Positions 1 through 64,000 of a stretch of DNA of 64,000 bases are shown here, piece by piece. How positions within the stretch are numbered: the first letter of the stretch is position 1; the number at the start of each line of letters is the position of its first letter. The notes beneath the pieces were generated by a model. The model searched no databases. It was given only the letters and a program-made list of their open reading frames with translations, and had not been told where the DNA came from. This DNA is from Deltaproteobacteria bacterium (GTDB taxonomy: Bacteria; Desulfobacterota; RBG-13-43-22), in contig JACQYK010000175.1 in NCBI GenBank assembly GCA_016208255.1, positions 3,944-67,943 on the forward strand. Reading direction: 5' to 3'. The translations under genes and the position numbers were made by a program.

Positions 1-2
1 GC

Positions 3-287
3 GGACACCAGGTCCTGGCCGGGGTGGGTTATGAGGTGGACCGGGGGCTTCTGCCCCTCTTTTCCAGAAGGGGGAAGACCAAGCAGCTCTATCTGGGTGA
101 TTCCGATTTTTATCTGGAAAAACTGATGCAGGACGTTGAAAAATGGCCCGCACCCGAAAAATTCAGAGGAAAAGCCCTGGGTATTTTTGACATCCCCAGG
201 GAGAAACAGATACCCTACTGGCAGCCCTGGAGGGAACGCTGGGAAGCCATTGAGAAGAGGAAAAAAGAAAGAAAAAAGAAAAAATAA
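3..287 (+). CDS. C-terminal end of an unidentified protein entering from the left edge (Lys-rich tail)
   Basis: The frame is open from nt 3 (GHQVLAGVGYEVDRG...) to TAA at 285-287. ORF-track entry 24..287 is its tail. No family recognised. Confidence 0.4.
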   Translation, partial: GHQVLAGVGYEVDRGLLPLFSRRGKTKQLYLGDSDFYLEKLMQDVEKWPAPEKFRGKALGIFDIPREKQIPYWQPWRERWEAIEKRKKERKKKK

Positions 288-307
288 GGTTCAAGCGAAT
301 CGAAGAA

Positions 308-331
308 GCCGGGTCCTCTGGACCCGGCTTT
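308..331 (+). terminator. Candidate hairpin terminator
   Basis: GCCGGGTCC-tct-GGACCCGGC followed by TTT, 20 nt after the stop of the edge ORF. The T-tract is short. Confidence 0.45.
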
Positions 332-599
332 CCACCTCAATATCTGCTGATTATCCCTCCCAAGAAATTCGACGACCACAAATAGAAGCTATCCCCGTTT
401 GGGAAGAAAGGATGGAAATAAATAACAGAGGTTGACTTTAACCATTTGTTATGGTTAATATTATAAAAATTTGATTTTGGCTTTAATGATTCCGGCAACC
501 CATAACCGAAAGGCTGGTCCATGAAGTAGTTCGACAAGGCATTCTTATTAAAAAGAAGGGCCTGTCCTCCCATTTTCATGTTTTATCTGAAGGTTCTTA

Positions 600-4712: not shown

Positions 4713-6142
4713 GAGAAGAGTTGCCACGAGGATGGAGTATGGCAGAATTAGAGAGCGTTGCCGAACTTGTCAGCGGGGCTGGTTTTCCTTTGAACCTCCA
4801 AAGCCAGACAGGATTTACTTTCCCGTTTTTTAAAGTTGGAAATTTGAAGGATGTAGCTTCAGGAAAACCTTTAGTCTCTTCCGAACACACGATTTCTGAA
4901 AGAGCCGCCTACTCGCTCCGGGCTAGGATTATCCCAGAGGAAGCCACTGTGTTTGCAAAAATCGGCATGGCTATAAGCTTAAACCGAAGACGTCTGATTG
5001 GAAGGCCTGCTTGTATTGATAACAACATGATGGCTGCTATACCAAACGAGGCTATACATCCCAGTTATCTCTTACGCTTTCTTGAGACGGTTGATTTTAT
5101 GCCTTTAACTCAAGCTACAACAGTTCCGAGTCTTCGGAAGGGCAATATAGCAAAGATTCTGGTTCCACTGGCACCTTTGGAGGAACAGCGCCGTATCGTG
5201 GTAAAGCTGGAAAAACTTTTGGAGAAAGTCGAATCCAGCCGGACACGTCTTGAAAAGATTCCCGTCGTCCTCAAACGCTTTCGCCAATCCGTCCTCGCCG
5301 CCGCCTGCTCTGGCCGTCTCACTGCCGATTGGAGGGAGCAATCAAAACAATCAATCGAACATATCATCAGAGATAACAATACTGCCCTGCCTGAAATTCC
5401 CGAAAGTTGGCGATGGGTAAAACTTCCGGATACAGGGGAAATGAGTCGTGGAAAGTCGCGGCATAGACCAAGAAATGAGCCTTCATTATTTGATGGACAA
5501 TACCCTTTCATCCAAACTGGTGATATTGCCCAGTCAGGGGGTAGAATTACCTCCCATAAGCAAACTTATAATGAGGCAGGTCTTGCCCAGAGCCGTCTTT
5601 GGCCAGCTAACACCATTTGCATCACGATCGCTGCGAACATTGCTGAGTCGGCCATTTTGACCTATCCAGCATGTTTTCCCGACAGCATTGTCGGGATCAT
5701 TGCAAATTCTGTGGTCTGTTTGGCAGAGTATGTTGAATTTTTCATCCGGGTAGCGAAAACAGATCTATCGACATTTGCCCCTGCGACGGCCCAGAAGAAC
5801 ATCAATATTGCCATTTTAAATGAGGTGGCTGTCCCTCTCCCCCCTCTAATAGAACAACATGAAATCGTCCGCCGTGTGGAAGAACTCTTTGCCCTTGCCG
5901 ACCAGATCGAAGCCCGTTACCAGAAAGCAAAAGCCCATGTGGACAAACTCACCCAATCCATCCTGGCCAAAGCCTTCCGTGGCGAACTCGTCCCCCAAGA
6001 CCCAAACGATACACCTGCGATAATTTTGTTGAGTGAAATTGATATTGGCAAGAAATACTTTAAAAACACCCTTCTCAAAAGATCAAAGATGAGAGAAAAA
6101 CATAAAATAAAAACTAGAGAGGGAACACATGGAGGCGAATGA
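4709..6142 (+). CDS. hsdS: Type I R-M specificity subunit (HsdS)
   Basis: 477 aa with a GTG start overlapping the hsdM stop (GTGA). Two variable target-recognition regions are separated by conserved repeats (LAPLEEQRRIVVKLEKLL and LPPLIEQHEIVRRVEELFALADQIE). Confidence 0.9.
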   Translation: MREELPRGWSMAELESVAELVSGAGFPLNLQSQTGFTFPFFKVGNLKDVASGKPLVSSEHTISERAAYSLRARIIPEEATVFAKIGMAISLNRRRLIGRPACIDNNMMAAIPNEAIHPSYLLRFLETVDFMPLTQATTVPSLRKGNIAKILVPLAPLEEQRRIVVKLEKLLEKVESSRTRLEKIPVVLKRFRQSVLAAACSGRLTADWREQSKQSIEHIIRDNNTALPEIPESWRWVKLPDTGEMSRGKSRHRPRNEPSLFDGQYPFIQTGDIAQSGGRITSHKQTYNEAGLAQSRLWPANTICITIAANIAESAILTYPACFPDSIVGIIANSVVCLAEYVEFFIRVAKTDLSTFAPATAQKNINIAILNEVAVPLPPLIEQHEIVRRVEELFALADQIEARYQKAKAHVDKLTQSILAKAFRGELVPQDPNDTPAIILLSEIDIGKKYFKNTLLKRSKMREKHKIKTREGTHGGE

Positions 6143-10221: not shown

Positions 10222-11506
10222 TCACTTGACTGCCATGATCCGCGCCCAGCAGGGATTGACAACCGGGATGCGGACTTTTCCGCCGCGGATCGGAAACCGG
10301 TCGCCCTGGTTCAGCAGATCAATCAACTGCTTCTTGTCCGGCTCCGGAACCGGTAAATCCAGGGGAACCGGTTTGTCCGCGGCGTTAACGGCCACAATGA
10401 CACATTCTTCCGGCGTCTGCCGGGCAAAGGCCATTTGCTCGGACTTGACTAAGAGGGGGCGATAAAGGCCATAGCGCAGGGCCTGGGAGTGATGCCGGAT
10501 TTGAGCCAGGCGGTTTAGGACACCGGGCAAATCCGGGTGCGGGCTGTTCTGAGAGATCTGGGAATAATCGAGACAGGGTCGAAGGGCCCGGTCGCTTCGG
10601 CTGCTTCTTTTCCCGGCGATTCCCCATTCACTTCCATAGTAAATGGAAGGGATACCCGGCATGGTAAACAACAGGCTGTAAAGCGGGTAGAGATGGGCCG
10701 GGTTTTTGAGCTGGCTGGCCACGCGATGGACATCATGGTTGTCGGCGAATGAATAGAGGAGGAGATCCCGATAGATCCCCTTTTCTCCAAACTGCCGATT
10801 CAGGGTGTGGGCCAGTTCAAAATAATTCCGGTCGGCGTGGCTTGAGTATAAACCCTTGTAACCGACATAGTTGGTGACCGAATCCAGGGTTTCCGGGTTG
10901 ACCCATTTCCGGTAATCGCCGTGGATCACTTCGCCCATCAACCAGAAATCGGCCCGGCGGGTCTTACAAAAAGACCTTAAGTCTTTTAAAAAAGAAAGAT
11001 CGAGACTGTCGGCTACATCCAGTCTCAGTCCATCAATATTAAATTCCCGAATCCATGATTCGATGGCCTGAAAAAGATGGGCCTTAATCGAGGGATTAAG
11101 TAAATTGAGCTTAACCAGGCTGCAATGGCCGTTCCAGTTATCGTAGGTGAAGGGATCATTATAGGGGCTGCGCTTGCTGAAGTCGAGCCCCTGAAACCAG
11201 TCGAATTCCCTTTTGATGGAGACGGGTGCTCAGGTCTGTCAAAGTTTTATTGCTTCCCAGCCGGCGGTCCACCTGAAAATAATCGGCTGTGTCATAGCCA
11301 TGGGAAGTGGATTCAAATAATGGTCCCAGATAAAGGGCATTCACTCCCAATTGCTTTAAATGGTCTATCCAGGGATACAATTGTTCCAGCCGAGGTTCGG
11401 GTGGGGAGCAGAAGTCATTCTCAAAAGGAGCGCCACAGAACCCGAACGGATAAATGTGATAAAAAAACGCATCATATGCCCAATGCGCCAAGAAAAACCT
11501 CCTCAA
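10222..11506 (-). pseudogene. GH13 alpha-amylase-family glycosidase, disrupted by an internal deletion and frameshift
   Basis: The N-terminal fragment 11159..11506 (HWAYDAFFYHIYPFGFCG...NALYLGPLFES..HGYDTADYF) and the C-terminal part (...NIDGLRLDVADSL..., FADNHDVHR) are in different frames. The expected ~30 aa after HQKGIRL (VLDGVFNH...) are missing near 11200. Confidence 0.8.
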
Positions 11507-11653
11507 AAAAGATACTAATTCTATTTGATAATTTCTATTTTTCTCATAGATTATATAAAAAGAAGCCGATCATTCACTACCAGGCATTTTATGGATTCCC
11601 TAAGGATCTTTACACCATTCCGGTCTATTATCAGCAGGCTAAGTCCTCTTTAG

Positions 11654-11735
11654 TTCGAAAATAGGATCCGAGCCTACGAGACTATTTCCATGTCTGGTGG
11701 TGCCACGCCCCAAAAGGCGGGGGATGGCGGTTTAA
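11654..11735 (+). repeat. Family B intergenic repeat, copy B1
   Basis: TTCGAAAATA-N22-TTCCATGTCTGGTGGTGCCACGCCCCAAAAGGCGGGGGATGGCGGTTTA. It overlaps the marR stop codon. Confidence 0.7.
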
Positions 11736-12175
11736 CACAATTTTGGAGCAATGTTTCTAACTGTCTGCAAAGCTTTATATAGGGATTCGATGTCCTCATC
11801 ACTCAATTCCGACAGGTTTATACGAACGATATTTTTTAGGCCCAGCATACTCTCTTTTAAAAACCTAATTCCCTTTTCGGTTATTAGGACATTTATGACT
11901 CGTCTGTCGTTGGCATCGTATCTCCGTTCAACCAGTCCGTCTTTCATAAGTTTGTCGACGATAGTGGTCATGTTTTGTTTGGCAATAATCAGTTGCCTTC
12001 CGACGGCTGACAGAGAAAGCGGACCGCTTCTTTCCAATATTCGAAGGATAGAGTAGGTTTGATTTCTTAATGGGGCAAGCGCTGGGTCACTGGGATCAGC
12101 ATTGAAAAGTCGTTTCAGTAAAGGGAAGAGTTGAAGCGCGCTTTCAGAGATACCGTCGATTTGTTTTTCCCGCAT
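11732..12175 (-). CDS. MarR-family transcriptional regulator
   Basis: 147 aa. wHTH region with LSLSAVGRQLIIAKQNMTTIVDKLMKDGLVERRYDANDRRV, typical of MarR. Confidence 0.9.
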   Translation of the reverse strand: MREKQIDGISESALQLFPLLKRLFNADPSDPALAPLRNQTYSILRILERSGPLSLSAVGRQLIIAKQNMTTIVDKLMKDGLVERRYDANDRRVINVLITEKGIRFLKESMLGLKNIVRINLSELSDEDIESLYKALQTVRNIAPKLC

Positions 12176-12360
12176 AATTACTCCTTAAGTCGAAGTATAA
12201 ACCCCGGCTCTCTGGGCCAGGTCAGAGTCAAACGGCTATGCCGCTTGGGCTTTTTTTGAAATCGCGGCGCTGAAGCCATAAATCGGCCCTATAGCCGGGG
12301 CGAAGAGCCCGGATGGGTTGATTCAAGCGATCTTTTTTCTTTTATAATGGTATATATTTA

Positions 12361-12401
12361 TGATAGTAATATATAATTACCTGTTATTCTTATAAAGTCA
12401 A
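12361..12401 (-). promoter_or_regulatory. Candidate sigma70 promoter with a TACTATCA operator box upstream of marR
   Basis: The minus strand reads TTGACT-N17-AATTAT-atat-TACTATCA. The same architecture recurs at 21167-21221. Confidence 0.4.
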
Positions 12402-12478
12402 ACATTTTTTGATATAAATAGTCGAGAAATAAAATATCTTAATAATTTTTAACATTAGTTATCAATCAAATTGTATTA

Positions 12479-12724
12479 CTATCCATTAGGACAGATTCCT
12501 CTTGCGGAACCCATTCCTTCGGTAGGCCGGTAAAGCTGCAGCACGCCTCGGGCCGTGGTGGATTTCCCGCAGCCGCTTTCCCCGACCACCCCCAGGGATT
12601 CCCCGGGGAAAAGGGCGAAAGAGATATCCCGGACCGCGTTCAATGTGCCATCGCGGAGGTAGAATTTAACATCCAGTCCCTCCACGTCCAGAATGGGTTT
12701 TTTTATGGTTTGTGTCGTTTCCAT
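12479..12724 (-). pseudogene. Truncated ABC ATPase (DppD/OppD-like N-terminal 70 aa only)
   Basis: 81 aa. It reaches Walker A (GESGCGKST) and ...LQLYRPTEG, then diverges and stops. It overlaps the dppC-like stop (ATGA). An AT-rich non-coding region follows. Confidence 0.75.
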
Positions 12725-13707
12725 TATCGCCTGAGTCTCCCCAATCTCCCTAATCTCATTCCGCCGGTCAGCTTGGGATCCAGCAGGTCCCGCAGGGCAT
12801 CTCCCAGCATGTTAAAACCGAATACCCCGGCGCTGATGGCCAGGCCGGGGAAGATGGCCAACCAGGGGCTTTTGAGCATGTAAGCCATCCCGTCTCCGGT
12901 CAACATCCTTCCCCAGGAGGGCGCCGGCGGCGGAACACCCAACCCGAGAAAGCTGAGGGCGGCTTCAGCCAAGATGATATTCCCCAGGCCAAGGGTAGAA
13001 AGAACGATAATAGGGGCGGCCACATTAGGAAGGATATGTCGGACCAGAATCGTTAGATCCTTGCATCCAACTGACTTGGCGGCTGTCAGGTAGTCACTCT
13101 CTTTGATGGCCAGGACCGCGCTGCGGACAACACGGGAGGCCCCGGCAAATCCCCCCAGGGCCAGGGCCAGGATGAGATTGAGCATGCCTGGCCCCAAGAC
13201 GGCCATTACAGTCAGCATGATGACCAGCCAGGGGAAGGACATGACGGCATCCACGATCCTTTGGGTGATCGTATCAAATAGGCCTCCAAAATAGCCGGAC
13301 AAGATTCCGATAAGCGTTGACAAAATTGTACTCAGACCGATAGCGCCTAAGCCTACAGTCAAGGAGACCCGAGCCCCGTAAACAATACGGCTGAAGACGT
13401 CTCGGCCCAGGGAGTCCGTGCCCATATAGAAACTGCCGCCGGGGGGGACGAGAATTTTCTCATCAAGGATATCATTCGGGGAATAGGGGGCAATAATCGG
13501 GGCAAAAAAGGCCATTATCAACATAACCATTATCAGGACTCCGCCAAAAGCCCCCAGAGGCTTGGTTTTTATTAGTTGCAGGAACAGATCGAGGATCCAA
13601 TGGTGCCTGGTTATAGGCTTGTTGGATTGTTCGATGATGTCCGGCGGGGCTCCAGTCAGGTTTTTTTCTATCGGGTTAAAATCCATGCTTTGTCCTTTTC
13701 TTTTCAA
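12724..13707 (-). CDS. ABC transporter permease (DppC/OppC-like)
   Basis: 327 aa, multi-TM. BPD-transporter EAA-type loop (AAKSVGCKDLTILVRHILPN). Confidence 0.9.
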   Translation of the reverse strand: MKRKGQSMDFNPIEKNLTGAPPDIIEQSNKPITRHHWILDLFLQLIKTKPLGAFGGVLIMVMLIMAFFAPIIAPYSPNDILDEKILVPPGGSFYMGTDSLGRDVFSRIVYGARVSLTVGLGAIGLSTILSTLIGILSGYFGGLFDTITQRIVDAVMSFPWLVIMLTVMAVLGPGMLNLILALALGGFAGASRVVRSAVLAIKESDYLTAAKSVGCKDLTILVRHILPNVAAPIIVLSTLGLGNIILAEAALSFLGLGVPPPAPSWGRMLTGDGMAYMLKSPWLAIFPGLAISAGVFGFNMLGDALRDLLDPKLTGGMRLGRLGRLRR

Positions 13708-19267: not shown

Positions 19268-19300
19268 TTTTTCTCCTTCCTATTTTAAAAAATCTTTGTT

Positions 19301-19463
19301 GACAGGATTAACAGGATTTACATGATTTTTGCTCAGGCTCCAGAAGACCCTGAGCAACTTTAATCCGCTTTCAGCGGAGACTTGGGCTTCGTCTGTAGGA
19401 CGATTCTCCTTTGCCTTTCTTCCGGAAAGGCAAAACAATCCAGATTATCCTGTAAATCCTGTC
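19301..19463 (+). repeat. Family A TIR-bounded multi-hairpin element, copy A1
   Basis: Runs GACAGGATTAACAGGATT ... AATCCTGTAAATCCTGTC and fills the ligase-ACAD intercistronic gap. Confidence 0.85.
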
Positions 19464-19467
19464 TAAA

Positions 19468-21221: not shown

Positions 21222-21309
21222 GCGATTTTTTTCAATAATCTTATTGTGGAGAAAAGAACCAGATAGGGACAGCAAGGAGAGAAATGAATGCAGTATGTTA
21301 TTGCAATAA

Positions 21310-21705
21310 TAGAATCCGTGACCAAGAGGGGTTGACAGGATTAATAGGTGCTTTCCCGTCACGGACCGGAAATCAATCACCCTGTTTTAGAAGATCGACC
21401 AACACACCTCCAACCTTTATTGGTAAGATTAATTCTCAGGGAACCGGTTTGTCCGGGGCGTTGACGGCCACGATGACATCTTCTTCGGGGGTTTCCCGGG
21501 CGAAAGCTAATTGCTCGGACTTAACCAGAAGCGGACGATAATCGCCGGGGCGCAGGGCAGGGGAGTGGAGCCGGATATGAGACAGGCGGCTGGTGATCCA
21601 GCCAAGGATTAACGGGAGAGCAAAAGTCATTTTTAGGAGGAGCCCCGCAAAAACCAAACGGATAAATGTGATAGAAAACCGAATCAAAAGCCCAGTGATC
21701 CAATA
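21310..21705 (-). pseudogene. Remnant of a second GH13 paralogue (N-terminal ~40 aa joined to C-terminal ~90 aa)
   Basis: HWAFDSVFYHIYPFGFCGAPPKNDFCSP and YRPLLVKSEQLAFARETPEEDVIVAVNAPDKPVP match the two ends of the 10222-11506 gene. DNA identity is roughly 75-80% by eye over ~100 nt. Confidence 0.7.
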
Positions 21706-21755
21706 TCAATTTCCTTTGTACTATTTTAATGGGACTCCACCACCCCAATACAAAC

Positions 21756-22460
21756 TTACAAATATTCTTCTAACTCTTGTTTGAGTTTGGCAATCTGACT
21801 CATCGCTTCATCCGCTAACGCCTGATGGCTGTGATGATGATTGGCATAAATCGGCTTTCCAAAACTCACAATCAATTTTTTAAATTTTCCGATATGTCCT
21901 GAATTGTGAATGTACATGGGAAGAATAGGGGCGCCGGTTTTTTGGGCCAGGAGACCCAGGCCCGCCTTGGCCGGCTGAAAGTGATCGGTTTTGCCGCGTC
22001 CCCCTTCCGGGAAAATAATCAACGCCCCATTTTTTGAGAGAATTGCCACTGACAACCGAAGGGCCGCGATATCTCCCCCTCGACGCTTCAGCGGATGAGC
22101 ATTGCATTGGGTGATGATCCAACCAAAAGGTCGGAATCTAAAAAGCTCTTCTTTGGCCAGAAAATGAACCGGGCGGGGGATGGTTATTCCAACGACTTGC
22201 GGATCGGCATAGGATTTATGGTTGCTGGCAATAATGAGCGACCCTTTTAGGGGAACACGTTCAGCATGCCTTATTTGCAATCTCCAGACGATTTTATATA
22301 CCCAATAAAAAAGGAAGCGGCTGAGCCGATAGACAAATCTTAATTCATTAGGGTCCCGGTCCAAGACTGACTTTTTCATCACACCGATATTAATTTCCTG
22401 AGATTTGACCAAAATGTCGGAAAAGAAAGGTCGCTGCTTGCCAAGGTTTAATGCCTTCAA
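21756..22460 (-). CDS. plsC: 1-acyl-sn-glycerol-3-phosphate acyltransferase
   Basis: 234 aa. HX4D motif NHKSYADP and FPEGGRG. The TTG start overlaps the upstream stop; an alternative ATG is at 22379. Confidence 0.88.
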   Translation of the reverse strand: MKALNLGKQRPFFSDILVKSQEINIGVMKKSVLDRDPNELRFVYRLSRFLFYWVYKIVWRLQIRHAERVPLKGSLIIASNHKSYADPQVVGITIPRPVHFLAKEELFRFRPFGWIITQCNAHPLKRRGGDIAALRLSVAILSKNGALIIFPEGGRGKTDHFQPAKAGLGLLAQKTGAPILPMYIHNSGHIGKFKKLIVSFGKPIYANHHHSHQALADEAMSQIAKLKQELEEYL

Positions 22461-23455
22461 TGATGAGCGCCTCTTGGTTCTTTTTGATAAAAGAAGATCC
22501 GCCCATTTATTTGACTCCTTCCAATTTTTCCCTCTTTTTCCAGTTGCAGCAAATGAACATAGGTTTCATTGAAGGCCAGGCCCTGGTCAAAACCGGAAAG
22601 GGAGTCCCCGAAAATCCTTTTTGATATTTCGGAGGTCAGTTGGGGAGTATTAGAAACGGATCGCCAGGTCAAATCTTTTCTCTGGATATGATGCTCGATA
22701 ATTTCTTTCACCCGCCCGGGGAGATCCTCAAAAGGCTCCCCATGGGCGGGATAGACCGTCTTGACCGGCAAGGCCCTGATCCGCTCCAACGACCCTATGA
22801 AATTTTCCAGGGGGAGGAAGGTCGGACAGGCCGGGTCCGGACTCAGGTTTGGGGTTATATGGGGCAGGATACAATCCCCGGAGAGAAAGATTTGTTCTTC
22901 CGGTAAATAAAAGGAAAGATGACCCCGGGTGTGGCCCGGAGTAAAGAGGGCGCAAAAGGTCCTGCCTCCAATTTTTATCAATGCTCCGTCATTCAAAAAA
23001 TGATTGGTGAGGAATGGGGCAGTGGCCGAAGTGAAAGCGTCTAATACGGTGCTAAAGGCAACGATGGTTTTTTCATCCAGTCCATACTGCCGCCAAAAGT
23101 TTCCGATTGACTCAATTTTTCGATGATCCCGATGAGCCCGGGTAATGGCCTCGAATTCTACCTCAGACAAAAAGATACGGGCTTCTGAGATTTCTTTGAT
23201 TCGTCCGGCGAATCCGCAATGGTCCACATGGGAATGGGTGATGAAAATCCGGTCCACATCCTCGATAGACCGCCCGATGCGGGCTAAAGCGCTTTTATAC
23301 ATGGAAAAGCTGGAAGGGAGGGAGGGCCCGGTATCGAAAAGGGCGACCCGATCCTGTTCCAAAGCGGCATAGGTATGGACAAAATCAAGTCCAAAGGCCA
23401 GTGGGATGCTGATCCGGTATAGCCCCGGGGCGATTTCTTGAACGGTTTCTTTCAA
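22457..23455 (-). CDS. MBL-fold metallo-hydrolase
   Basis: 332 aa. HxHxDH motif THSHVDHCG, and a later GHTRGH. Confidence 0.85.
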   Translation of the reverse strand: MKETVQEIAPGLYRISIPLAFGLDFVHTYAALEQDRVALFDTGPSLPSSFSMYKSALARIGRSIEDVDRIFITHSHVDHCGFAGRIKEISEARIFLSEVEFEAITRAHRDHRKIESIGNFWRQYGLDEKTIVAFSTVLDAFTSATAPFLTNHFLNDGALIKIGGRTFCALFTPGHTRGHLSFYLPEEQIFLSGDCILPHITPNLSPDPACPTFLPLENFIGSLERIRALPVKTVYPAHGEPFEDLPGRVKEIIEHHIQRKDLTWRSVSNTPQLTSEISKRIFGDSLSGFDQGLAFNETYVHLLQLEKEGKIGRSQINGRIFFYQKEPRGAHH

Positions 23456-23482
23456 TGGGTACCTTTATTGCGCAGGTCGTTG

Positions 23483-24304
23483 TTATTTTTTCCCGCCTCT
23501 AAGTCTGGTCATGGACGCTTTCATGGCATCTTGACTGTCTTGGGTGGTACGAATCACTCCCATATGGGATGAGATCATATCCAGGGCCGTCCGCAAATCA
23601 ACACGACTGCTCTGATAGACGGCGCGTTTGATCAGTTGAATGACCTTGGTCGGTCCGTCGGCCAACTGCCGGGCAAATTGGTAGGTCTCTTCCATCAATT
23701 GGTTGTCGGGGAAGACCTTATTGACCATTCCGATACGCTCCGCCTCCGGCGCGAAAATAAAGTCACCGGTCATCAGAAGCTCCAGGGCTTTGGCAACCCC
23801 GACCAGTCTGGGCAGATAGTAAGCCCCTCCGTCTCCGGGGACAAATCCGACCTTGACGTATCCTTCCGAAAACCTGGCCGACTCGGCGGCAAAGCGGATA
23901 TCGCACATCAGGGCCATGTCCAGCCCGGCGCCGACGGCCACACCGTTTAAGGCGGCGATGACCGGTTTATCCGTATCCTCCAGGGTCAGGGGAATACGGT
24001 GGATCCGTTCCCATAAGTTGCTTTTGTGATCAAAGGCCGTCGGGGCCGCGGTGGCCCCCTCTTGAGCCGGCGCAAAATAGGCACCGGCGCAGAAAGAATC
24101 GCCGCTCCCCGTCAGGACAATGACCTTGACCTCCGGGTCGGTACGCCATTCCTGCAGGGCATTGGCCCATTGGTCAATCATGTCCATGGAAAAGGAGTTT
24201 TTCCTCTCGGGGCAATTTAAAGTAATCGTGGCAATCCCATTCTCTTTTTTAAATAAAATCTCCGGCTTGTTCATGATTAGTCCTTTCTCTCTTGATTTGA
24301 CCAT
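23483..24304 (-). CDS. Enoyl-CoA hydratase/isomerase (crotonase family)
   Basis: 273 aa. Crotonase pattern ITLNCPERKN...FCAGAY...AALNGVAVGAGLDMALMCD. Confidence 0.9.
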   Translation of the reverse strand: MVKSREKGLIMNKPEILFKKENGIATITLNCPERKNSFSMDMIDQWANALQEWRTDPEVKVIVLTGSGDSFCAGAYFAPAQEGATAAPTAFDHKSNLWERIHRIPLTLEDTDKPVIAALNGVAVGAGLDMALMCDIRFAAESARFSEGYVKVGFVPGDGGAYYLPRLVGVAKALELLMTGDFIFAPEAERIGMVNKVFPDNQLMEETYQFARQLADGPTKVIQLIKRAVYQSSRVDLRTALDMISSHMGVIRTTQDSQDAMKASMTRLRGGKK

Positions 24305-24434
24305 TCAAATTTTCTTTAGGCCTTGCCGTCTCACCTGCAAAAATTTTATTTACCTTATAACTACCTCAGATTGAATTTATGTCAAGTGATTCTTGAACGG
24401 CCCGCAAAAGAGGAACAGGGGCTGATCATAATTT

Positions 24435-24464
24435 TTGACATTAGTGCGGGTCTCATTGTAATAT
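24435..24464 (+). promoter_or_regulatory. Candidate sigma70 promoter
   Basis: TTGACA (24435-24440), an 18-nt spacer, then TAATAT (24459-24464). It lies ~120 nt upstream of the MoaD/ThiS-like reading frame. Confidence 0.45.
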
Positions 24465-24583
24465 CAAGCGGAACCGGAACATGATCATCCCCCTCTTTTT
24501 CCCTTTAGGATACCTGGTTGGATACATCTGACTGGTAAAAGGGGATCAGGGAGGCAACCTCTTTTTCAGGCGAAGTCTTCTTT

Positions 24584-24822
24584 ACGAACGTCACCGTTAA
24601 ATTATTCGGGACCTTGAGTGACCTTTTCCCGGAGTATGATTTTGAGAAAGGTCTGGAATTGGATCTGCCCGAAGGCTCGAAAGTGGCCGATCTTTTAACC
24701 CTTCTGGATATTTCCGATGACCGGGGGGAACGGTATTGATGGGCAGCCGGTTTTTGTCCAGGGAGGAAAAGGTGTTCCCCGGATCACAGGTCCTCATTTT
24801 TCAAGCCCTGAATGGGGGGTGA
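24584..24822 (+). pseudogene. MoaD/ThiS-family sulfur-carrier (beta-grasp, C-terminal GG), frameshifted with no start codon
   Basis: (T)NVTVKLFGTLSDLFPEYDFEKGLELDLPEGSKVADLLTLLDISDDRG is in one frame. TVLMGSRFLSREEKVFPGSQVLIFQALNGG* is in the -1 frame. The junction is the G6 run at 24723-24728. ACG occupies the position where ATG is expected. Confidence 0.6.
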
Positions 24823-24829
24823 AATCCTA

Positions 24830-32613: not shown

Positions 32614-34856
<2,243 letters not shown>

Positions 34857-34950: not shown

Positions 34951-34984
34951 TTAGTAATACTTTAGACGTATGAAAAGATTTTCT

Positions 34985-35146
34985 GACAGGATAACAGGAT
35001 TTACACGTTTATTACTCAGGCTCCGGTGATACTGAGCACCTTAGCTCCATCCCAGCGGAAGGAAGGGCCTTTCTCCGCAGGATGATTTGGTTTGTGCCTT
35101 TCTTCTGGAAAGGCACAAAAATCCAGGTAATCCGGTAAATCCTGTC
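34985..35146 (+). repeat. Family A element, copy A2
   Basis: GACAGGATAACAGGATTT ... AATCCGGTAAATCCTGTC, with the same internal hairpin modules as A1. Confidence 0.85.
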
Positions 35147-35261
35147 GGATAAAAGATTGGATGTTCAAAGAGCTAAATTGACACGTTATTTATTAGATTG
35201 AAAAAATGAGTGGCTGAATTCGATTTATGATCCCCACTGCTGCTTCAAAGTAAAATCTATT

Positions 35262-35432
35262 TCAACATGGCTCGGAGGCCGGAGAGCAGACCGTAAATCC
35301 TTCACCATACCAGGAATCTTTATAGTCTATAAGAGTTTGATTAAATAGATCTTTCTCCTGTTTATTATAAACGAACTCGATGCCTTGTAAATGCAAGATT
35401 TCATCTTCTTCTCTTGGTTCATCCAGAACCAT
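35262..35432 (-). CDS. Small ORF (56 aa) resembling the C-terminal half of HesB/IscA-like proteins; possibly a fragment
   Basis: My own translation, below the ORF-track cutoff: MVLDEPREEDEILHLQGIEFVYNKQEKDLFNQTLIDYKDSWYGEGFTVCSPASEPC. The LDE...G..FV......L....IDY....G.GF pattern is IscA/HesB-like. The upstream part is AT-rich and does not continue the fold. Confidence 0.3.
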   Translation of the reverse strand: MVLDEPREEDEILHLQGIEFVYNKQEKDLFNQTLIDYKDSWYGEGFTVCSPASEPC

Positions 35433-35617
35433 TGCCAATCTAAGGATAGAAATCAGGTGTTGAACAACTAAATTAAAATAATAATATCAAATAAATATGG
35501 TTGAATTATTTATGGTTGAATGATCAATATTAAAATTTCTTGGTAATTGAAAAGAAACTATTCAATATATTGTTGGGCTGCTTGCCAATACGATTTTGTT
35601 CACGGAGGATGAATTAA

Positions 35618-36199: not shown

Positions 36200-36332
36200 G
36201 CAGCCCAACACAGCCTGCACCTGACTGGCGGGTACGTGCCGCGTTTTCAAGCATTTTCTTGGCTTCAGGCCTATACTGCTCCCAAGCGTTATCTCACCAA
36301 TCCCGCCAGCAGGTAACGCATACCGTTATAGC
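36200..36332 (+). other. attC-like imperfect palindrome downstream of the HD gene
   Basis: GCAGCCCAAC (36200-36209) is the inverse of GTTGGGCTGC (35572-35581). A 12-bp stem pairs 36220-36232 with 36302-36313, with one bulged base (A36224). The structure ends ...ACCGTTATAG (36326-36332). Confidence 0.4.
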
Positions 36333-36349
36333 AAAAGCGAAGAGGAATT

Positions 36350-36900
36350 ATGGATGTTAAACTGATTCCGGTGATTTCAATCATAATATCTGCTTTGGCA
36401 TTTGTCGTGTCCGCTTTGACGGCTTGGGTTTCTTTGTTTCATCGAGGCACGATTAGGATGACCCAACCCACAATATTCTTTTTCGGCCCCGACGGTCTTC
36501 TGATCCTCCGAAGATATTTCTGAGAACCTTGCTCTTTAGCACCTCGAAGAAAGGCCGCATTTTAGAAAACATGTTTGTCAGGCTTCAGAGAGGAGAGTCC
36601 GTGCAAAATTTCAACATCTGGGTATATGGTGATAAAGAAACTCTCGCACGGGGTAGCGGTCTGTTTGTAGGCAGAGAGGGAATAGCCTGCAATCACCACT
36701 TCTTGCTTCCCAAAGACGGCACCAAATATACTTTCCTGCCCGGCGAATATAGTCTGGAGCTCTTCGGCTCATTGCTTGGAGAAGGACGCGCCGTGCCTCT
36801 TTTCGCACAGAAGCTTTTTCTTTCGAAGGAATTCGCTGAAGAGATTAACAACGAGAAATCGGGTATGACGCTTGCTATGCCGCCCTGGCCCAGGATATGA
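36350..36900 (+). pseudogene. Membrane-anchored hypothetical protein split by a frameshift near 36490-36500
   Basis: A 57-aa ORF at 36350..36523 (MDVKLIPVIISIIISALAFVVSALTAW..., one TM helix) continues in another frame as ...SSDPPKIFLRTLLFSTSKKGRILENMF... (track ORF 36529..36900). Confidence 0.5.
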
Positions 36901-42999: not shown

Positions 43000-43930
43000 T
43001 TAATTTACAGGAAATAACCAATCTTTGAATCGGGCATCCTTTCCTCTGACGATAGTATCGAGGAGTGCCGCCATCTTTTGGGTTACTGGTCCCGGTACCT
43101 TGGGCAGCACCCGGTCCTCGATTTTTCTGATGGGCAAAACTTTCAGGGGGCTGCATGAAAAAAACATTTCTTCAGCCTCGTAAAGCAGCTCGGGATCCAG
43201 CCGGCCTTCAAAGGTCGGGATACCATCGGCTTCCGCAGCCTGAAGGATAGACCTGCGGCTGATGCCTGCCAGCACCGTCCCCAGGGACGGGGTCATCAGT
43301 TGACCGGCTTTAACCAGAAAGAAAGATTCAGCAGCGCCTTCGGCGATAAACCCCTGGGTATCGAGCAGAAGGGCATATTCAAATCCACGTTTTCCGGAAT
43401 CCACGTTTTCCGGCTTCAATCCGAGCCACCATGCCGTTGAGATAATTGGCGGCGGCCTTGGCCGGCACCGGGACCGTTTGAGGGTCAAGCTTACGCCATT
43501 TACTGATAGCGACCGTTGTTGAGGGTCCTTTCTTAAATCCTTCCGCTATATCCTGGGCCGGATCGAGGGAAAAGATGGAGACATCCAGTAGCTGGTGGGG
43601 GGGAAGGACTTGAACGGAAAACTGAGGATAAAAACAGATGATCTTTATGAAGCCCTGGTTGAGTTGGTTGCGCTTAACCGTCTCCGCCGCCGCCTGGTAG
43701 AATTCCGCCGGGGACAGGGGAAGCTTCATATCCAGAAACTCCGCGGTTTTAAAAAGTCGTTTGATGTGTTCCTCGAGTCGAAAAATGACCGGTCCGGAAT
43801 CGGTGGCGTGGAAGCTGATAACTTCAAAAATAGCCGATCCCCGGCCAAAACTGTGAGACATAATGTGAACCGTGGCCTGCTGCCAGGCAATAAATTCCCC
43901 ATTCAGGTAAACGATACGGGTTTCAAGCAT
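43000..43930 (-). pseudogene. Class IV (branched-chain/D-amino-acid) aminotransferase, frameshifted by a 16-bp tandem duplication
   Basis: Track ORFs 43379..43930 (YLNGEFIAWQQATVHIMSHSFGRGSAIFEVI...) and 43000..43488 (...GFEYALLLDTQGFIAEGAAESFFLVK...) overlap at the duplicated GKRGF codons. Confidence 0.85.
43382..43413. repeat. Perfect 16-bp tandem duplication AATCCACGTTTTCCGG x2
   Basis: Read directly: 43382-43397 equals 43398-43413. Confidence 0.95.
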
Positions 43931-43992
43931 TTTCTCTCCTGCCTTTCACGGAAATTAAGAAATCACTTCATTCTTATGAAAATAAATTATCT

Positions 43993-44188
43993 GACAGGAT
44001 TAACAGGATTGACATCTACTTTGCTCAGGCTCCGGACGACCCTGAGCAAACTCAATCCGCTCTCAGCGAAAATTAAGACCGTCCGAAGGACGATTCATTT
44101 TGTGCCTTTCTTCCCTATGCTTGTCTGTTTTATTGCATGCAGACAAGTCGAAAGGTACAAAAATCATAGTAATCCTGTAAATCCTGTC
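43993..44188 (+). repeat. Family A element, copy A3 (with an extra nested hairpin)
   Basis: GACAGGATTAACAGGATT ... AATCCTGTAAATCCTGTC. The last hairpin is expanded by CTTGTCTGttttattgcatgCAGACAAG. Confidence 0.85.
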
Positions 44189-44302
44189 TAAGATAAGTAT
44201 TTAAATTTCAAAAAGCAAAACTGATATGAAAAAAAATCCCCTGAAAAAAAACCAAAAATGTAGGTAAAGGCCCGGGTAAATTTTCCCTGGGCCTGGTTGG
44301 GG

Positions 44303-48544: not shown

Positions 48545-48833
48545 GACAGGATTTATCGGATTACCCGGATTTTTGTGCCTTTCGACTTGTCTGCATGCAA
48601 GCAGACAAGCAAGGGGAAGAAGGGCACAAGCCAAATCGTCCTGCGGGTCAAGCATTGGTTCCGGCTGAAAATGGATTGAGGTTGCTCAGGGTCTTCAGGA
48701 GCCTGAGCCAGGTATCTGAAAATCCGTTCGGTCGGCTCATTGGCTCCCCAAGGGGAGCCTCTTCGAAAGCTCGGCAAAGCCGAGCGGCCCGACCTCAAAA
48801 AAGGTTCCCTTTTGGGAACCGCTTGATCCTGTC
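48545..48833 (-). repeat. Family A element, copy A4 (inverted, with a ~100-bp composite insertion)
   Basis: Begins GACAGGATTTATCGGATTAC and ends GATCCTGTC. It is collinear with the reverse complement of A3 up to ~48720, then carries extra hairpins including the 48758-48794 module shared with 25004-25040. Confidence 0.8.
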
Positions 48834-51561: not shown

Positions 51562-52761
51562 ATGACCGACCACCTGCCTTTTGCCAATCCTCAGGAAGTG
51601 GGGATGTCTGCGGAACGTTTGAAACTTATCCGGCCTATGATCCAAAAATATAAGGATCTGCAGTGGATCCCCGGCGCGGTCACCATGGTTGCCCGTCAGG
51701 GGAAAATCGTTCATTTTGAGGTTCAGGGTTTTCAGAATATTGAAAAGCAGATCCCCATGACCAGGGACACCATTTTTCGCATGGCTTCGATGACCAAGCC
51801 GATAACTTCCGTGGCCTTGATGATGTTGTATGAACAGGGCAAATTTCAGCTGGGAGATCCCATTTCCAAATGGCTTCCGGCTTTTAAGGAAATGAAAGTG
51901 GCCGTTTATAAAAATGGAAGAGGGTATGATCTGGTGCCGGCCGACCCTCCCATCAATGTCTGGCATATCCTGACCCACACGGCCGGTTTTGCCACCGAAT
52001 ACAATCCTAAAAACCTGGAGATTTACAAGGAAGCCACAAAATTCCGCAGCCGTAAAGAGGTCATCGGCGATTTTGTGGACCGGATGGCCACGGTTCCCCT
52101 TAACAATCACCCCGGGACTATGTGGGATTATTCCCGGGCAACCTGTGTGGTGGGCCGCCTGGTCGAGGTATTATCCGGACAAACCCTGGCCGATTTTTTT
52201 AAAGAGCATATTTTCGAGCCATTGGGCATGGTGGATTCTTATTTTTTTCTGCCGGAAGAAAAACTGTCCCGCTTTGCCGTGGCCTACACGCCGGGGGAGG
52301 ATAAAAAAATCATCGTGACCGATCCTGATACGACGGAGAGTTTTTGGCTCAGCAAACCCGGCATTTATTATATGGGCTCCGGCGGACTGGTCTCGACCGC
52401 CTCAGATTATTTTCGCTTCGCCAATATGCTGATGAACTGGGGAAAGCACGGAGAGAAGCGGATTCTGGGCCGGAAAACCATTGAATTGATGACCAGGAAT
52501 CATATCGGGAATAGACCGATCTGGCTGACAGGCCCGGGGCATGGCTTCGGCCTGGGGTTCGGGGTTTCTTTGGACCGGGGGGAAACCCATAATATGGTCA
52601 GCGAAGGCACCTATACCTGGGGCGGCGCCTTTTGTACCTATTGGTGGAACGATCCCCAAGAAAAATTATTCGGCATGGTTCTTACCCAGGTGCGCCCCTA
52701 CGATCATCTTAATATCCGGGCGGATATGCAGACGATGGCCACCCAGGCCATAGATGATTGA
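51562..52761 (+). CDS. Serine hydrolase, beta-lactamase/esterase (class C-like) family
   Basis: 399 aa. The S-x-x-K motif is ASMTKPITS, and a G-x-G-G occurs later. Confidence 0.88.
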   Translation: MTDHLPFANPQEVGMSAERLKLIRPMIQKYKDLQWIPGAVTMVARQGKIVHFEVQGFQNIEKQIPMTRDTIFRMASMTKPITSVALMMLYEQGKFQLGDPISKWLPAFKEMKVAVYKNGRGYDLVPADPPINVWHILTHTAGFATEYNPKNLEIYKEATKFRSRKEVIGDFVDRMATVPLNNHPGTMWDYSRATCVVGRLVEVLSGQTLADFFKEHIFEPLGMVDSYFFLPEEKLSRFAVAYTPGEDKKIIVTDPDTTESFWLSKPGIYYMGSGGLVSTASDYFRFANMLMNWGKHGEKRILGRKTIELMTRNHIGNRPIWLTGPGHGFGLGFGVSLDRGETHNMVSEGTYTWGGAFCTYWWNDPQEKLFGMVLTQVRPYDHLNIRADMQTMATQAIDD

Positions 52762-52933
52762 ATGTTTCGGGCCGGAGCGCTGCATGTTCGAAAGCAATTT
52801 CCCGGTGGATAAGCTTTCTCTGTCTTACCCGGTGGTCTGGAATGCCTTCAAAAAAATGGTAGCCGACTTTACCGAGCCAGAAAAAGACGCCCTTTTCCGG
52901 GGGACGGCAACAAAGGTTTATCGTCTAGCTTAG
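52754..52933 (+). pseudogene. 3' remnant of an amidohydrolase-2 family gene (last ~55 codons)
   Basis: My own translation: FGPERCMFESNFPVDKLSLSYPVVWNAFKKMVADFTEPEKDALFRGTATKVYRLA*. This is the typical C-terminus of PF04909-type amidohydrolases. No upstream body is present. Confidence 0.6.
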
Positions 52934-52967
52934 GAAGCTCGGGATCATCTTTTTTTAATATTTATCA

Positions 52968-53030
52968 GACAGGATTTACAGGATTACCTTGATTTTGTGC
53001 CTTTCGACTTTTCTGCCTGAAAGCCGCAGT
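52968..53030 (-). repeat. Family A element, truncated copy A5
   Basis: GACAGGATTTACAGGATTACCTTGATTTTGTGCCTTTCGACTT... matches the same end of A3/A4, but the rest is missing. Confidence 0.7.
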
Positions 53031-58538: not shown

Positions 58539-59176
58539 TTGCTGATGGCTGAAGTAAGGCAGGGAGCAATGCCGATGAACAATCACCCGGGGTACAGCAG
58601 AGGACCGTGGAGAAAAATAATCTTCTTTATTTATTGTTTCTGCCCGGTTACGGCCTGGGTTTTTCTTTTAAGTGCCTGTCCGGTCCGGGCCGAAATAAGG
58701 CTGGAGACCATCAAACTCCCGAAGGGCTTTTTAATCGAGCTCTATGCCGGGAAAGTTGAAGGGGCCCGTTCCCTGACCCTGGGACCCAAAGGGGTCGTCT
58801 TTGTCGGCAGCCACAGGCCGGGTAAGGTTTACGCCCTGCTGGACCGGAACGCCGATCAGCGGGTCGAGGAAGTGATTACCCTGGCTGAGGGTCTGGAATC
58901 GCCCAACGGGGTGGCCTTTCGCCAGGGGTCCCTTTACGTAGCCGAGATTTCCAGGATACTTAGATTTGAGGATATCGTTAATCGCCTCCATAATCCCCCC
59001 AAGCCGGTTGTGGTCAATGACACTTTTCCCAGAGACAGACACCACGGCTGGAAATTCATCGCCTTCTGGCCTGGGGAAGGCCGGTGGATATCCTGGTTAT
59101 GCCCGACGGCGCCCTCCTGGTCTCCGACGACAAGGCCGGTGCCGTTTATCGCATCAGCTATAAAAAACCCCGTTAA
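58539..59176 (+). pseudogene. PQQ-dependent sugar/sorbosone dehydrogenase family gene with a large internal deletion
   Basis: The N-terminal ~175 aa (...LESPNGVAFRQGSLYVAEI...RHHGWKFIAF) are joined out of frame near 59066-59080 to the last ~31 codons (PVDILVMPDGALLVSDDKAGAVYRISYKKPR*, stop at 59174-59176). About 200 aa of the beta-propeller are missing. Confidence 0.72.
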
Positions 59177-59236
59177 CTTTTCAATGGGGGTGCTGTGAAC
59201 TGAGCCAGGTCAGCCAGGCCTAATTCACCCTCGATT

Positions 59237-61821: not shown

Positions 61822-62008
61822 GCATTTTTTGAGGAAGCTTAGATTTCACCTTCTTTCTGCAACTATAATCGGCCGAGTAAGTGGAGATAGTAGGTAGTGG
61901 CCAAGGCGGCTGAGAATGAAAAAAATAATGTGATTTGTAGAGCGTCCTTGGGCAACTATCTTTTTAAGATTTTTAAACTATATTCTACGAAGTGGAATAA
62001 TAGAAAGA

Positions 62009-62284
62009 ATGTATTTTCAGGTCGTAAAGTATGTATTTTCCGGGGCTCTTAGGTCTGAATAGGAAATCAGTCCGGGGACTTTATACCCGCTACTGGCAAG
62101 GCTTGAAGTGCTTGGCTGGCTTGATTGCAAAACTGATCCTGATGGCGGACTTCGGGCAAAAAAGGAGTACGTTTTGACCCGCAAAGGCAAAAAGGCGCTT
62201 TCTTTCCTGAAAAATCAGATTGAAGAACTCCACGGCGAGGTGGTTGTGGGCGAAGGCAAAGAGGGACCGCTCCATGGACTATGA
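62009..62284 (+). pseudogene. PadR-family regulator remnant with an in-frame TAG
   Basis: My own translation: MYFQVVKYVFSGALRSE-TAG(62060-62062)-EISPGTLYPLLARLEVLGWLDCKTDPDGGLRAKKEYVLTRKGKKALSFLKNQIEEL... The winged-helix core is clearly PadR-like. The helix-1 region lacks a start codon. Confidence 0.5.
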
Positions 62285-62317
62285 GTTCATGACAAGACAT
62301 CCCTTTAAACAATAAAA

Positions 62318-63121
62318 GTGATAGGAATATCTATGGACTTTTTTATCGTTGCCTTAGCCGCGGTTTTCGTCTCAGGCCTGACGCTTTTCTCGGGCTTCGG
62401 TCTGGGTACACTCCTCATGCCTGTCTTTGCTCTATTCTTCCCGGTAGAGGTTGCCATCGCCTCCACTGCGATTGTCCACAGCGCGAATAGCATCTTCAAA
62501 ATCAGTCTGGTTGGGAAAAAAGCAGACAAAACACTGGTTATTCTTTTCGGCCTCCCTGCCATTATCGCTGCCTTCGCCGGTGCCGTCACACTGGGTTTTG
62601 TATCACACTTTGGAGAGATCGCCAGGTACCCCATAGGATCACGGACAGCGGTGATTACTCCCATCAAGCTCATCATGGGGGTGCTGATGCTTATTTTTTC
62701 TTTTTTCGAGCTATTACCAGGATTGCGAGAACTGAAATTCGACAGGAAATACTTGTTGATAGGTGGTATCCTATCTGGATTTTTCGGGGGTTTCTCCGGG
62801 CATCAAGGCGCTCTTCGCTCGGCTTTCCTCGCTAAAACGGGAGTCTCAACCCAGGCCTTTGTGGGAACAAATGCCGTTATCAGCTTCTTGGTGGATATAG
62901 CGCGAATCGCAACTTACGCGGGCACCTTCCTGGTGGCAAAGACAACCAGCCCTCTCGGCCCCAACCAATGGCCGCTGGTTTTTACCGGCGTTCTTGCAGC
63001 CTTCACCGGCGTTATGATCGGTAAGCAATTCCTGCACCAGATTACCATGAAGGTGGTTCAGAACCTGACCGGCCTTCTTTTACTGGGAATCGCCTTGGCT
63101 CTGGGTACAGGAATCGTCTGA
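62318..63121 (+). CDS. TauE/SafE-family anion exporter (DUF81)
   Basis: 267 aa, 7-8 TM. GLTLFSGFGLGTLLMP is typical. A likelier start is the ATG at 62333. Confidence 0.86.
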   Translation: MIGISMDFFIVALAAVFVSGLTLFSGFGLGTLLMPVFALFFPVEVAIASTAIVHSANSIFKISLVGKKADKTLVILFGLPAIIAAFAGAVTLGFVSHFGEIARYPIGSRTAVITPIKLIMGVLMLIFSFFELLPGLRELKFDRKYLLIGGILSGFFGGFSGHQGALRSAFLAKTGVSTQAFVGTNAVISFLVDIARIATYAGTFLVAKTTSPLGPNQWPLVFTGVLAAFTGVMIGKQFLHQITMKVVQNLTGLLLLGIALALGTGIV

Positions 63122-63139
63122 ATCAATTTTTATGATAAG

Positions 63140-63976
63140 TTACCAGGTGATATAAGGGCTGTTGATCAATCCGCCGAAGAGCAGAAACAGTCCCACGGCC
63201 ATGGCGGCAAAGCCGATGAGATAAAAGACGATCTGCCGGGCCGGAACGGCCTCGGAAACCGTCAAGGTCTGGAGGACCCCTTTGCTTTCCAGTCGGCTGA
63301 TCCAGGCCGGTTTTTCATGGCGGGCGGCGGTCAGATCGGCGCTTCCTTCGAAGATGGTCCGATCCATGGGAAAATTATGGCGGCGTAAGTGGCCGATAAA
63401 AAAATGGATAATAAAGACATGGCCCATGGCCAGGATGGCCTCGATCCGGTGGATCCAAAATAGAACGTTCAGAGTCCATCCCGGTAAAAGACGACTGGCG
63501 GCCAGGGGATAGGCCATTAGCAGCCCGCTGCCACCCAAAATGACCATCCCCCAAAAGACGGCCCAATAATCGAATTTTTCCCAATAGCCCCAACGGTCGA
63601 ACTCCGGGGCCCGGGACAGGCCCAGGAACCAGCCTATATGTTGAAAAAACTGACTCAGATCCGCCCAGCGGGGGAGCAGGGAATCGGGGCTGTCCAAAAG
63701 CTTATGCAAGTTTTTCCAGTCGATAGCGAAAGAAAGATAAATTAGGTGCCCGAGAAACAGGAGTAATAGAAAAATTCCTATCCAGATATGGATGGTCAGG
63801 GCCTTTTCATAACCGCCGAAACAGGCGGCCAAAAATTGACCCCATCCGGTTTCAATATACATACGGGACAGGCCCGTTGCCCCCTGGATCAAAAAAAACA
63901 ACAGGAGAAGGAAATGGAAAAGACGCTGGGGCGGGGTGAAACGTTTAATCCTCATTCTTGGCGGTTGTCCGGCCAT
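63140..63976 (-). CDS. Cytochrome b-type membrane protein (Ni/Fe-hydrogenase/FDH gamma-like)
   Basis: 278 aa. KRFTPPQRLFHFLLLL, TM helices with conserved His (HIWIG, HRIEAILAMGHVFIH). Confidence 0.72.
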   Translation of the reverse strand: MAGQPPRMRIKRFTPPQRLFHFLLLLFFLIQGATGLSRMYIETGWGQFLAACFGGYEKALTIHIWIGIFLLLLFLGHLIYLSFAIDWKNLHKLLDSPDSLLPRWADLSQFFQHIGWFLGLSRAPEFDRWGYWEKFDYWAVFWGMVILGGSGLLMAYPLAASRLLPGWTLNVLFWIHRIEAILAMGHVFIIHFFIGHLRRHNFPMDRTIFEGSADLTAARHEKPAWISRLESKGVLQTLTVSEAVPARQIVFYLIGFAAMAVGLFLLFGGLINSPYITW

Positions 63977-64000
63977 TTTTTTTCTCCCTGCTTAAAAACT

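Follow-up and report, generated by a model that had tools for sequence, protein, structure and literature searches.

Gene-cutting deletions in a draft genome of a Deltaproteobacteria bacterium: a possible composite of assembly errors and ordinary pseudogenes

The stretch of DNA analysed here, called the window, is 64,000 nucleotides (nt) long and corresponds to C132:3944-67943 (contig JACQYK010000175.1) of the draft genome of a Deltaproteobacteria bacterium (GenBank assembly GCA_016208255.1, here G000). About twelve genes in the window are broken or, in the case of the TM and beta-propeller genes, possibly broken: two GH13 alpha-amylase-family genes, dppD', a MoaD/ThiS-like carrier gene, metK, ahcY, a HesB/IscA-like gene, the gene of a putative membrane-anchored (TM) protein, a class IV aminotransferase gene, an Amidohydrolase_2 gene, a possible beta-propeller gene of the PQQ/GSDH-like type and a PadR-family gene. 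The breaks are present in the deposited sequence. Many of them are probably assembly errors that are mixed with ordinary dead genes and do not mark a decaying lineage.

The G000 draft comprises 6.35 Mb in 355 contigs (N50 26.5 kb, GC content 49.7%, shortest contig 2511 nt) and contains 53 runs of N, each of 1-127 nt. The many contigs, the 2511-nt minimum and the N-runs identify it as a scaffolded and binned short-read metagenome-assembled genome (MAG). Its estimated completeness is 96% and its contamination 7.5% (CheckM-type). Thirteen congeneric genomes with approximately 72-92% nucleotide identity are available for comparison. The closest of these is G012 (approximately 90%), and another, G011, is the aquifer MAG 'Deltaproteobacteria bacterium RBG_13_43_22'. 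The lesions were checked by Pfam coverage/PDB and by alignment to the syntenic loci of G012, G011, G009 and G004. The highly contiguous genomes G009 and G004 (loci L089-L097, L190 and L191) show frame shifts where G000, G012 and G011 have undamaged genes, as in ahcY of G004 and in a 928-aa gene of G009. This pattern of many single-frame shifts resembles long-read indel error, for which reason both genomes were dropped as controls of lesion load. An initial annotation of the window had listed about 12 decayed genes in its 64 kb, and ten of the twelve are borne out by Pfam/PDB and the congeners; the TM protein and the PQQ-type gene are unverified.

Several of the lesions are clean, sharp losses. 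The first GH13 gene (10225-11569, reverse strand) is divided between two frames by a 92-nt frameshifting deletion near 11195-11202, and its matches to the Pfam Alpha-amylase profile cover positions 25-84 and 153-364. The 92 nt absent from G000 are present in G012, G009 and G004 and include the conserved DGVFNH region; the junction joins GGAATT directly to CGACTGG. The metK gene (32614-33579, forward strand) has lost its promoter, ribosome-binding site and codons 1-82, in all approximately 320-355 nt, at a junction near 32649/32650. In the adjoining ahcY (33580-34856, forward strand) the ribosome-binding site and the first 13 codons are replaced by GGTTCAA-type repeat sequence, with a loss of approximately 99 nt, and the earliest canonical start is the ATG at 33672. 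Only the last 57 of approximately 340 residues remain of the Amidohydrolase_2 gene (52754-52933, forward strand; Pfam positions 233-289 of 289). As judged from G009, 939-1075 nt were deleted here between two copies of the 8-nt sequence ATTGAATG. In the class IV aminotransferase gene (43003-43945, reverse strand) the frame is shifted not by a deletion but by 16 nt that are exactly duplicated in tandem (CCGGAAAACGTGGATT, present twice, approximately 43398-43429).

The metK lesion affects a gene that is present in one copy only in the G000 assembly. The encoded protein has 326 aa, versus a full-length frame of 377-409 aa in 12 of 12 congeners, and the missing 5' part with the N-terminal domain was found nowhere else in the G000 assembly. 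An archaeal-type S-adenosylmethionine (SAM) synthetase was considered as a back-up and is absent from G000. On a 1632-nt JGI contig with 97.7% nucleotide identity, which is conspecific, metK is complete (391 aa) and the ahcY start is undamaged; this dates both lesions to within the last approximately 2% of divergence. The word that spans the metK junction is absent from public JGI metagenome contigs. A 309-aa MetK on a 189-kb ENA contig was rejected as a sign of a second assembly of the same strain: it is a different, C-terminally broken gene in what is apparently a long-read assembly. Three congeners contain a second metK-like gene (41% identical) with one in-frame TAG (G002:C270:33350-34330, G005:C86:13159-14133 and G008:C30:30389-31366), which may reflect either conserved recoding or a pseudogene common to the three.

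Other lesions have the look of true pseudogenes. The MoaD/ThiS-like carrier gene (24584-24827, forward strand) has two independent defects, an ATG to ACG change of the start codon and a 1-nt loss in the G-run at 24723-24728; in G009 and G004 the gene is undamaged and yields a protein of 79-80 aa with a GG end. The GH13 remnant (21301-21724, reverse strand) is strongly diverged, far more so than the other GH13 copy. It joins residues 1-44 to residues 355-453 of a 453-aa orthologue, with approximately 930 nt gone, and its protein identity to the orthologues is only 58-66%. The dppD' stump (12482-12811, reverse strand) retains positions 2-40 of the 137 of ABC_tran and lies at a rearrangement joint, between the dpp operon and a displaced segment with the GH13 and marR-like genes. 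A full-length dppD' paralogue is found on C35. In a PF00005 search across the genus the best 150 matches were all full-length, and fragments are not countable from them. The HesB/IscA-like gene (35265-35445, reverse strand) keeps its C-terminal approximately 60 codons, and its 5' half is replaced by foreign, AT-rich DNA that abuts the truncation and carries its own genes.

The GH13 remnant occupies the ancestral GH13 site. In G009, G004 and G012 the order is GH13, the genes corresponding to window positions 22457-24304, the marR-like gene (window positions 11732-12175) and MoaD. In G000 a GH13 copy and the marR-like gene (10225-12175) adjoin the truncated dpp operon, and the decayed remnant marks the old site in the region 21301-24827. 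The two G000 copies of GH13 are 74-79% identical. The HesB/IscA-like gene of the congeners lies next to ahcY (G012 L099, C203:122-335; G009 C10:~1657251-1657481) and has an in-frame TGA at the position of the family's cluster-binding Cys (…QQGYG[TGA]TGPRLAMVLDEP…). To judge from the position of this codon, the congener gene is probably a selenoprotein gene. The TGA belongs to the half that is lost in G000.

Three further lesions complete the set. The PadR-family gene (62063-62284, forward strand) lacks approximately 40 N-terminal codons; what remains matches positions 28-73 of the 75-position profile and, in a 113-aa PadR, corresponds to residues 44-106. The putative TM protein (36332-36897, forward strand) lies in two frames that are split near 36457-36520, and no family, paralogue or congener match was found for it. 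The possible beta-propeller gene (58539-59198, forward strand) would have an internal deletion and a change of frame near 59021-59080. Its sole family match is weak (DUF7133, E 0.0013), no congener match was found, and the comparison with families and homologues brought no confirmation.

The window genes that could be compared with congeners contain no nonsense lesion and one 1-nt frameshift, and no insertion of an insertion sequence was seen. In the control regions a few STOP flags were raised, and mlaE alone was examined individually. The description of the lesions as clean deletions rather than scattered stop codons thus fits the window. The window is also no chance outlier within its genome. 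Open reading frames (ORFs) of at least 100 aa cover 86% of the window versus 83% of the genome, and of 418 paralogue-based gene-fragment loci in the genome five fall in the window, with 4.2 expected.

Deletions of the same kind were found in three of four other random 20-kb regions of G000. In C7:40001-60000 a 1476-aa HdrA-like gene has lost 110 nt, and there is a second deletion of 144 nt; each is backed by four congeners. In C286:60001-80000 a 602-aa carboxyltransferase-like gene has lost 212 nt, and there is a 5' truncation of approximately 620 nt. In C264:20001-40000 deletions of 145 and 244 nt are backed by three and four congeners, respectively. The comparison of C276:20001-40000 with the congeners revealed no deletion specific to G000. 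The five sampled regions together yield approximately 11 deletions in 144 kb, which is approximately one per 13 kb, or one per 8 kb of the part alignable to congeners (approximately 86 kb by our estimate).

Housekeeping genes present a different picture. Among 98 conserved orthologues of Escherichia coli housekeeping and biosynthetic genes (approximately 39,500 aa, 118 kb) there are two clean deletions, one in gyrB and one in a suhB-like gene. The gyrB gene is a sole copy at C46:4728-7023 and is split into 514 + 270 aa. Every one of the 12 matching congeners has 86-88 nt that are missing here and that encode DGSHIRTLLLTFF..., a portion of the TOPRIM metal-binding motif. The suhB-like gene, of the inositol monophosphatase family (C209:1290-1915), has a frameshifting deletion of approximately 88 nt. 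The genes dnaE, ileS, carB, secA, fusA, glmS, pnp and ftsH, the mur genes and others gave single full-length matches, and the contig with rpoB, rpoC and fusA is intact. In the 20-kb dcw cluster a comparison at the DNA level revealed no G000-specific deletion and only insertions between genes that resemble miniature inverted-repeat transposable elements (MITEs). Three G000-specific insertions were noted here, at C281:3384-3707, 4955-5133 and approximately 12331-12580. The one at 4955-5133 matches dispersed repeat copies in the congeners; the other two (322 nt and approximately 200 nt) lie at other block boundaries and their sequence has no assignment.

The sizes of the G000-specific deletions are 86-88, ~88, 92, ~99, 110, 144, 145, 212, 244, ~340, ~620 and ~940 nt, and none falls between 22 and 85 nt. 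Microhomology at the junctions is 0-3 nt except for the 8-nt ATTGAATG at the amidohydrolase. Natural pseudogene spectra consist mostly of small events. To our knowledge, a size spectrum without deletions of 22-85 nt or nonsense lesions is unlike any natural one. A block at G012:C31:~12037-12127 that is otherwise collinear has 93 nt more than G000, G009, G004 and G011, and indels of such scale are therefore not confined to G000.

Short repeats had been proposed to drive the deletions. They occur at only about two of the ten junctions examined in detail, namely at ahcY and at the left end of the amidohydrolase deletion. At the junctions in GH13, metK, gyrB, the HdrA-like gene and the 602-aa gene the flanking sequence is unique and shares 0-3 nt. 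With most junctions thus in unique coding DNA, the deletions are not accounted for by repeats. Repeats are nonetheless abundant in G000: seven-nucleotide tandem arrays are common between genes, and a 184-nt MITE-like element is present in 86 near-full-length copies in G000 and in all congeners. Its reference copy in the window is at 19284-19467, with others at 34959-35177, 43964-44235 and 48545-48725; a partial copy (52961-53024) lies shortly after the end of the amidohydrolase stump. The element is absent at the lesion sites of GH13, metK and the aminotransferase.

As one of two readings, the initial annotation proposed a lineage under relaxed selection or with a small effective population. 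For the clean deletions this proposal is not supported. None of the congeners examined carries them (12 for metK and gyrB, one to four for the others). Among 42 genes, eight or nine are broken in G000, while in G012 and G011 the same genes show zero to two doubtful start-site differences. The ratio of nonsynonymous to synonymous changes (N/S), taken as a three-taxon count of the G000 branch versus the G012 branch, is not generally raised: it is 0.42 versus 0.37 in GH13, 0.10 versus 0.14 in metK and 0.16 versus 0.25 in the 602-aa gene. It is higher in the HdrA-like gene (0.58 versus 0.38), where the difference is not significant (p=0.11), and raised in ahcY (11/37 versus 2/47), where some of the nonsynonymous changes may belong to the replaced 5' edge. 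Coding density is ordinary. The housekeeping genes are several-fold poorer in lesions, yet the sole-copy metK and gyrB are cut, with no archaeal-type SAM synthetase to back up the former. We find no good evidence for lineage-wide relaxed selection. Fixed lesions of metK and gyrB could not occur in a haploid, clonal organism, and the clean-deletion class most likely never became fixed in a viable organism.

The joins of the assembly are demonstrably unreliable. The flanks of N-runs overlap by 110 nt at C141:24194 (13 N), by 38 nt at C332:4169 and by 25 nt at C102:30159, so that the scaffolder left overlaps unchecked and misjudged distances by more than 100 nt. In addition, unique sequence of G000 is duplicated exactly and in tandem at 23 sites (units of 16-75 nt), for example at C4:27334 (57 nt), C85:14140 (75 nt) and C123:20313 (38 nt), and the aminotransferase lesion is among them. 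These duplications may be untrimmed contig overlaps. As the signature of a mass artefact they are supportive and not overwhelming. Apart from the NCBI entry of the MAG itself, no record of the truncated proteins was found, and JGI, ENA and Logan assemblies lack them. Exact look-ups of these proteins gave no second assembly of the same strain, and a scan with the neighbouring beta-lactamase-like protein returned only other species with at most 90% identity. No duplicates of at least 1 kb with at least 90% identity, as expected of haplotigs, were found within the bin.

We favour a composite reading of the lesion-rich pattern, to which we assign a probability of about 0.5: artefacts of assembly, scaffolding or curation, or unfixed variants, together with ordinary pseudogenes. 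The clean deletions of 86 to ~940 nt, specific to G000, would most likely be errors introduced locally when the genome was assembled, scaffolded or curated, and at best variants that are not fixed. Members of this class in the window would be the 92-nt loss in GH13, the ~99-nt loss in ahcY, the ~340-nt loss in metK and probably the aminotransferase duplication. The 939-nt loss in the amidohydrolase is doubtful as an artefact given its 8-nt microhomology and may be a real deletion. The errors may have arisen where contigs were joined from paired-end distance estimates with no check of overlap, or where flagged regions were re-assembled. Too small an estimate would cause sequence at the join to be dropped; too large an estimate would cause it to be duplicated or padded with N. 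A lead only in this respect is that IDBA-UD trims by an estimated negative distance with no overlap check. The second layer would consist of pseudogenes and remnants in accessory, repeat-rich and rearranged DNA, that is the MoaD-like gene, the GH13 remnant, dppD', the HesB-like selenoprotein gene and the PadR gene, and perhaps also the TM and PQQ-like genes.

Two observations are among those that speak for the technical part of this reading. The metK and gyrB lesions are seen in one assembly only and are incompatible with viability, and the overlaps at N-runs and the tandem duplications show independently that distances at joins were mis-estimated. Chen et al. (2020, Genome Res., PMC7111523) name local assembly errors as a prominent feature of IDBA-UD scaffolds and as a cause of faulty gene calls, and their worked example documents 13 errors in 1.13 Mb. 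As in that description of short-read MAGs, the G000 lesions occur in one assembly, corrupt gene calls, are accompanied by short N-runs and unrecognised overlaps, and affect essential genes. However, the density outside housekeeping genes is approximately 7- to 10-fold higher in G000 than in the published example, and in contrast to plain MAG errors those of G000 would have to avoid housekeeping genes.

This avoidance is among the observations that weigh against a mainly technical origin. At the rate of the sampled regions approximately 14 deletions would be expected in the housekeeping set, and two were seen; the lesions are therefore not spread irrespective of gene function, as errors should be (2 in 118 kb versus approximately 11 in 144 kb). 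The several-fold depletion has the appearance of purifying selection against deletions that really occurred. Were the cause technical, it would need to track a property in which the gene classes differ, local strain diversity for instance; an error-fixing step triggered by a lack of perfectly mapping read pairs would act in this manner. The 8-nt microhomology at the amidohydrolase is typical of a natural deletion, and deletions of 340-940 nt exceed the directly measured join errors, which reach approximately 120 nt. Moreover, G011 probably comes from a similar pipeline and has no such lesions. The suggestion that a MAG assembly effect underlies the pattern is favoured for the clean-deletion class, which is confined to one assembly with wrong joins; the housekeeping depletion leaves room for a biological component.

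That depletion is also an argument for a real and recent decay of this strain, in which a burst of medium-sized, end-joining type deletions, largely independent of microhomology, would have followed relaxed selection or a bottleneck and mostly become fixed. Only gyrB and perhaps metK would then be assembly errors, at the usual MAG rate of approximately one per 80-90 kb, and the curated-MAG rate of 13 in 1.13 Mb does match the approximately one per 59-82 kb seen in housekeeping genes. The 8-nt repeat at the amidohydrolase junction and the occurrence of a lost start codon, a 1-nt frameshift and remnants alongside the deletions are likewise what such decay would produce. However, the gyrB (86-88 nt) and suhB-like (~88 nt) deletions have the size and form of the 92-nt deletion in GH13, and it would be odd if part of these were errors and part real. 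The gap in the size spectrum, the lack of nonsense lesions among the window genes compared with congeners, the N/S values with no sign of relaxation, the normal coding density, the loss of metK with no replacement and the lack of similar lesions in the nearest relatives also speak against it, and we consider this explanation unlikely, though a serious contender. The recently host-restricted Mycobacterium leprae and Sodalis glossinidius resemble G000 in their many inactivated genes, gene-dense chromosome, abundant repeats and young lesions. In these organisms, however, the lesions are fixed and shared in the lineage, include many nonsense changes and 1-2-nt frameshifts and lower the coding density, none of which holds in G000. 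They also spare indispensable genes; in G000 housekeeping genes are poor in lesions, but metK and gyrB are cut.

Mira, Ochman and Moran reportedly described in 2001 a deletional bias in bacterial genomes. Such a natural bias, together with microhomology-mediated deletion, resembles the state of G000 in that deletions exceed insertions and that the amidohydrolase junction has an 8-nt direct repeat. In contrast, natural deletion spectra are dominated by small events, whereas in G000 none is of 22-85 nt and most junctions have at most 3 nt of homology.

The deletions may alternatively be unfixed alleles, in a population or in a polyploid cell with many chromosome variants, with the contigs threaded through the deletion alleles. 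The intact segments would have ended up on contigs of less than 2.5 kb, which binning removed. This would account both for the lesions in essential genes and for their rarity there, as lethal alleles that are recessive or of low frequency would be met less often; the 2511-nt minimum means that short alternative contigs would be lost, and the intact conspecific metK does lie on a 1.6-kb contig of another metagenome. However, the bin holds no alternative haplotype contigs, public metagenome contigs lack the metK junction, there is no evidence on ploidy, and a very dense structural polymorphism would be needed together with a bias of the assembler towards minority alleles. We regard this as improbable. 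Similarly improbable is a related reading in which real, end-joining type deletions with a minimum of approximately 86 nt and little microhomology arise at a very high rate in a possibly polyploid or heterogeneous strain. Selection would then clear the housekeeping genes, and lethal gyrB and metK alleles would persist only through coexisting intact copies.

Least probable of all is that assembly artefacts, or chimeric joins between co-occurring congeneric species, account for nearly every lesion, the remnants and 5' truncations among them: the 74-79% identity of the GH13 copies is a typical between-species distance in the genus, the gene order at 10-12.5 kb differs from all congeners and contamination is 7.5%, but a start-codon point mutation with a homopolymer indel in the MoaD-like gene is not a join error, the position of the strongly diverged GH13 remnant is precisely that of the ancestral gene, and a distinct AT-rich insert with its own genes borders the truncated HesB-like gene.

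Under the composite reading favoured here, the main value of the finding is as a warning. Deletions that cut genes occur in G000 at an estimated one per 8-13 kb outside housekeeping genes, and a rough extrapolation suggests several hundred of them in the genome. The truncated products sit in NCBI nr, where they can mislead annotation and pangenome work for the genus. If the lesions were real and fixed, the loss of metK and gyrB would be extraordinary, and reads are hence needed before such a claim is made. Broken, truncated or split genes of G000 should not be taken as the biology of this organism unless reads support them.

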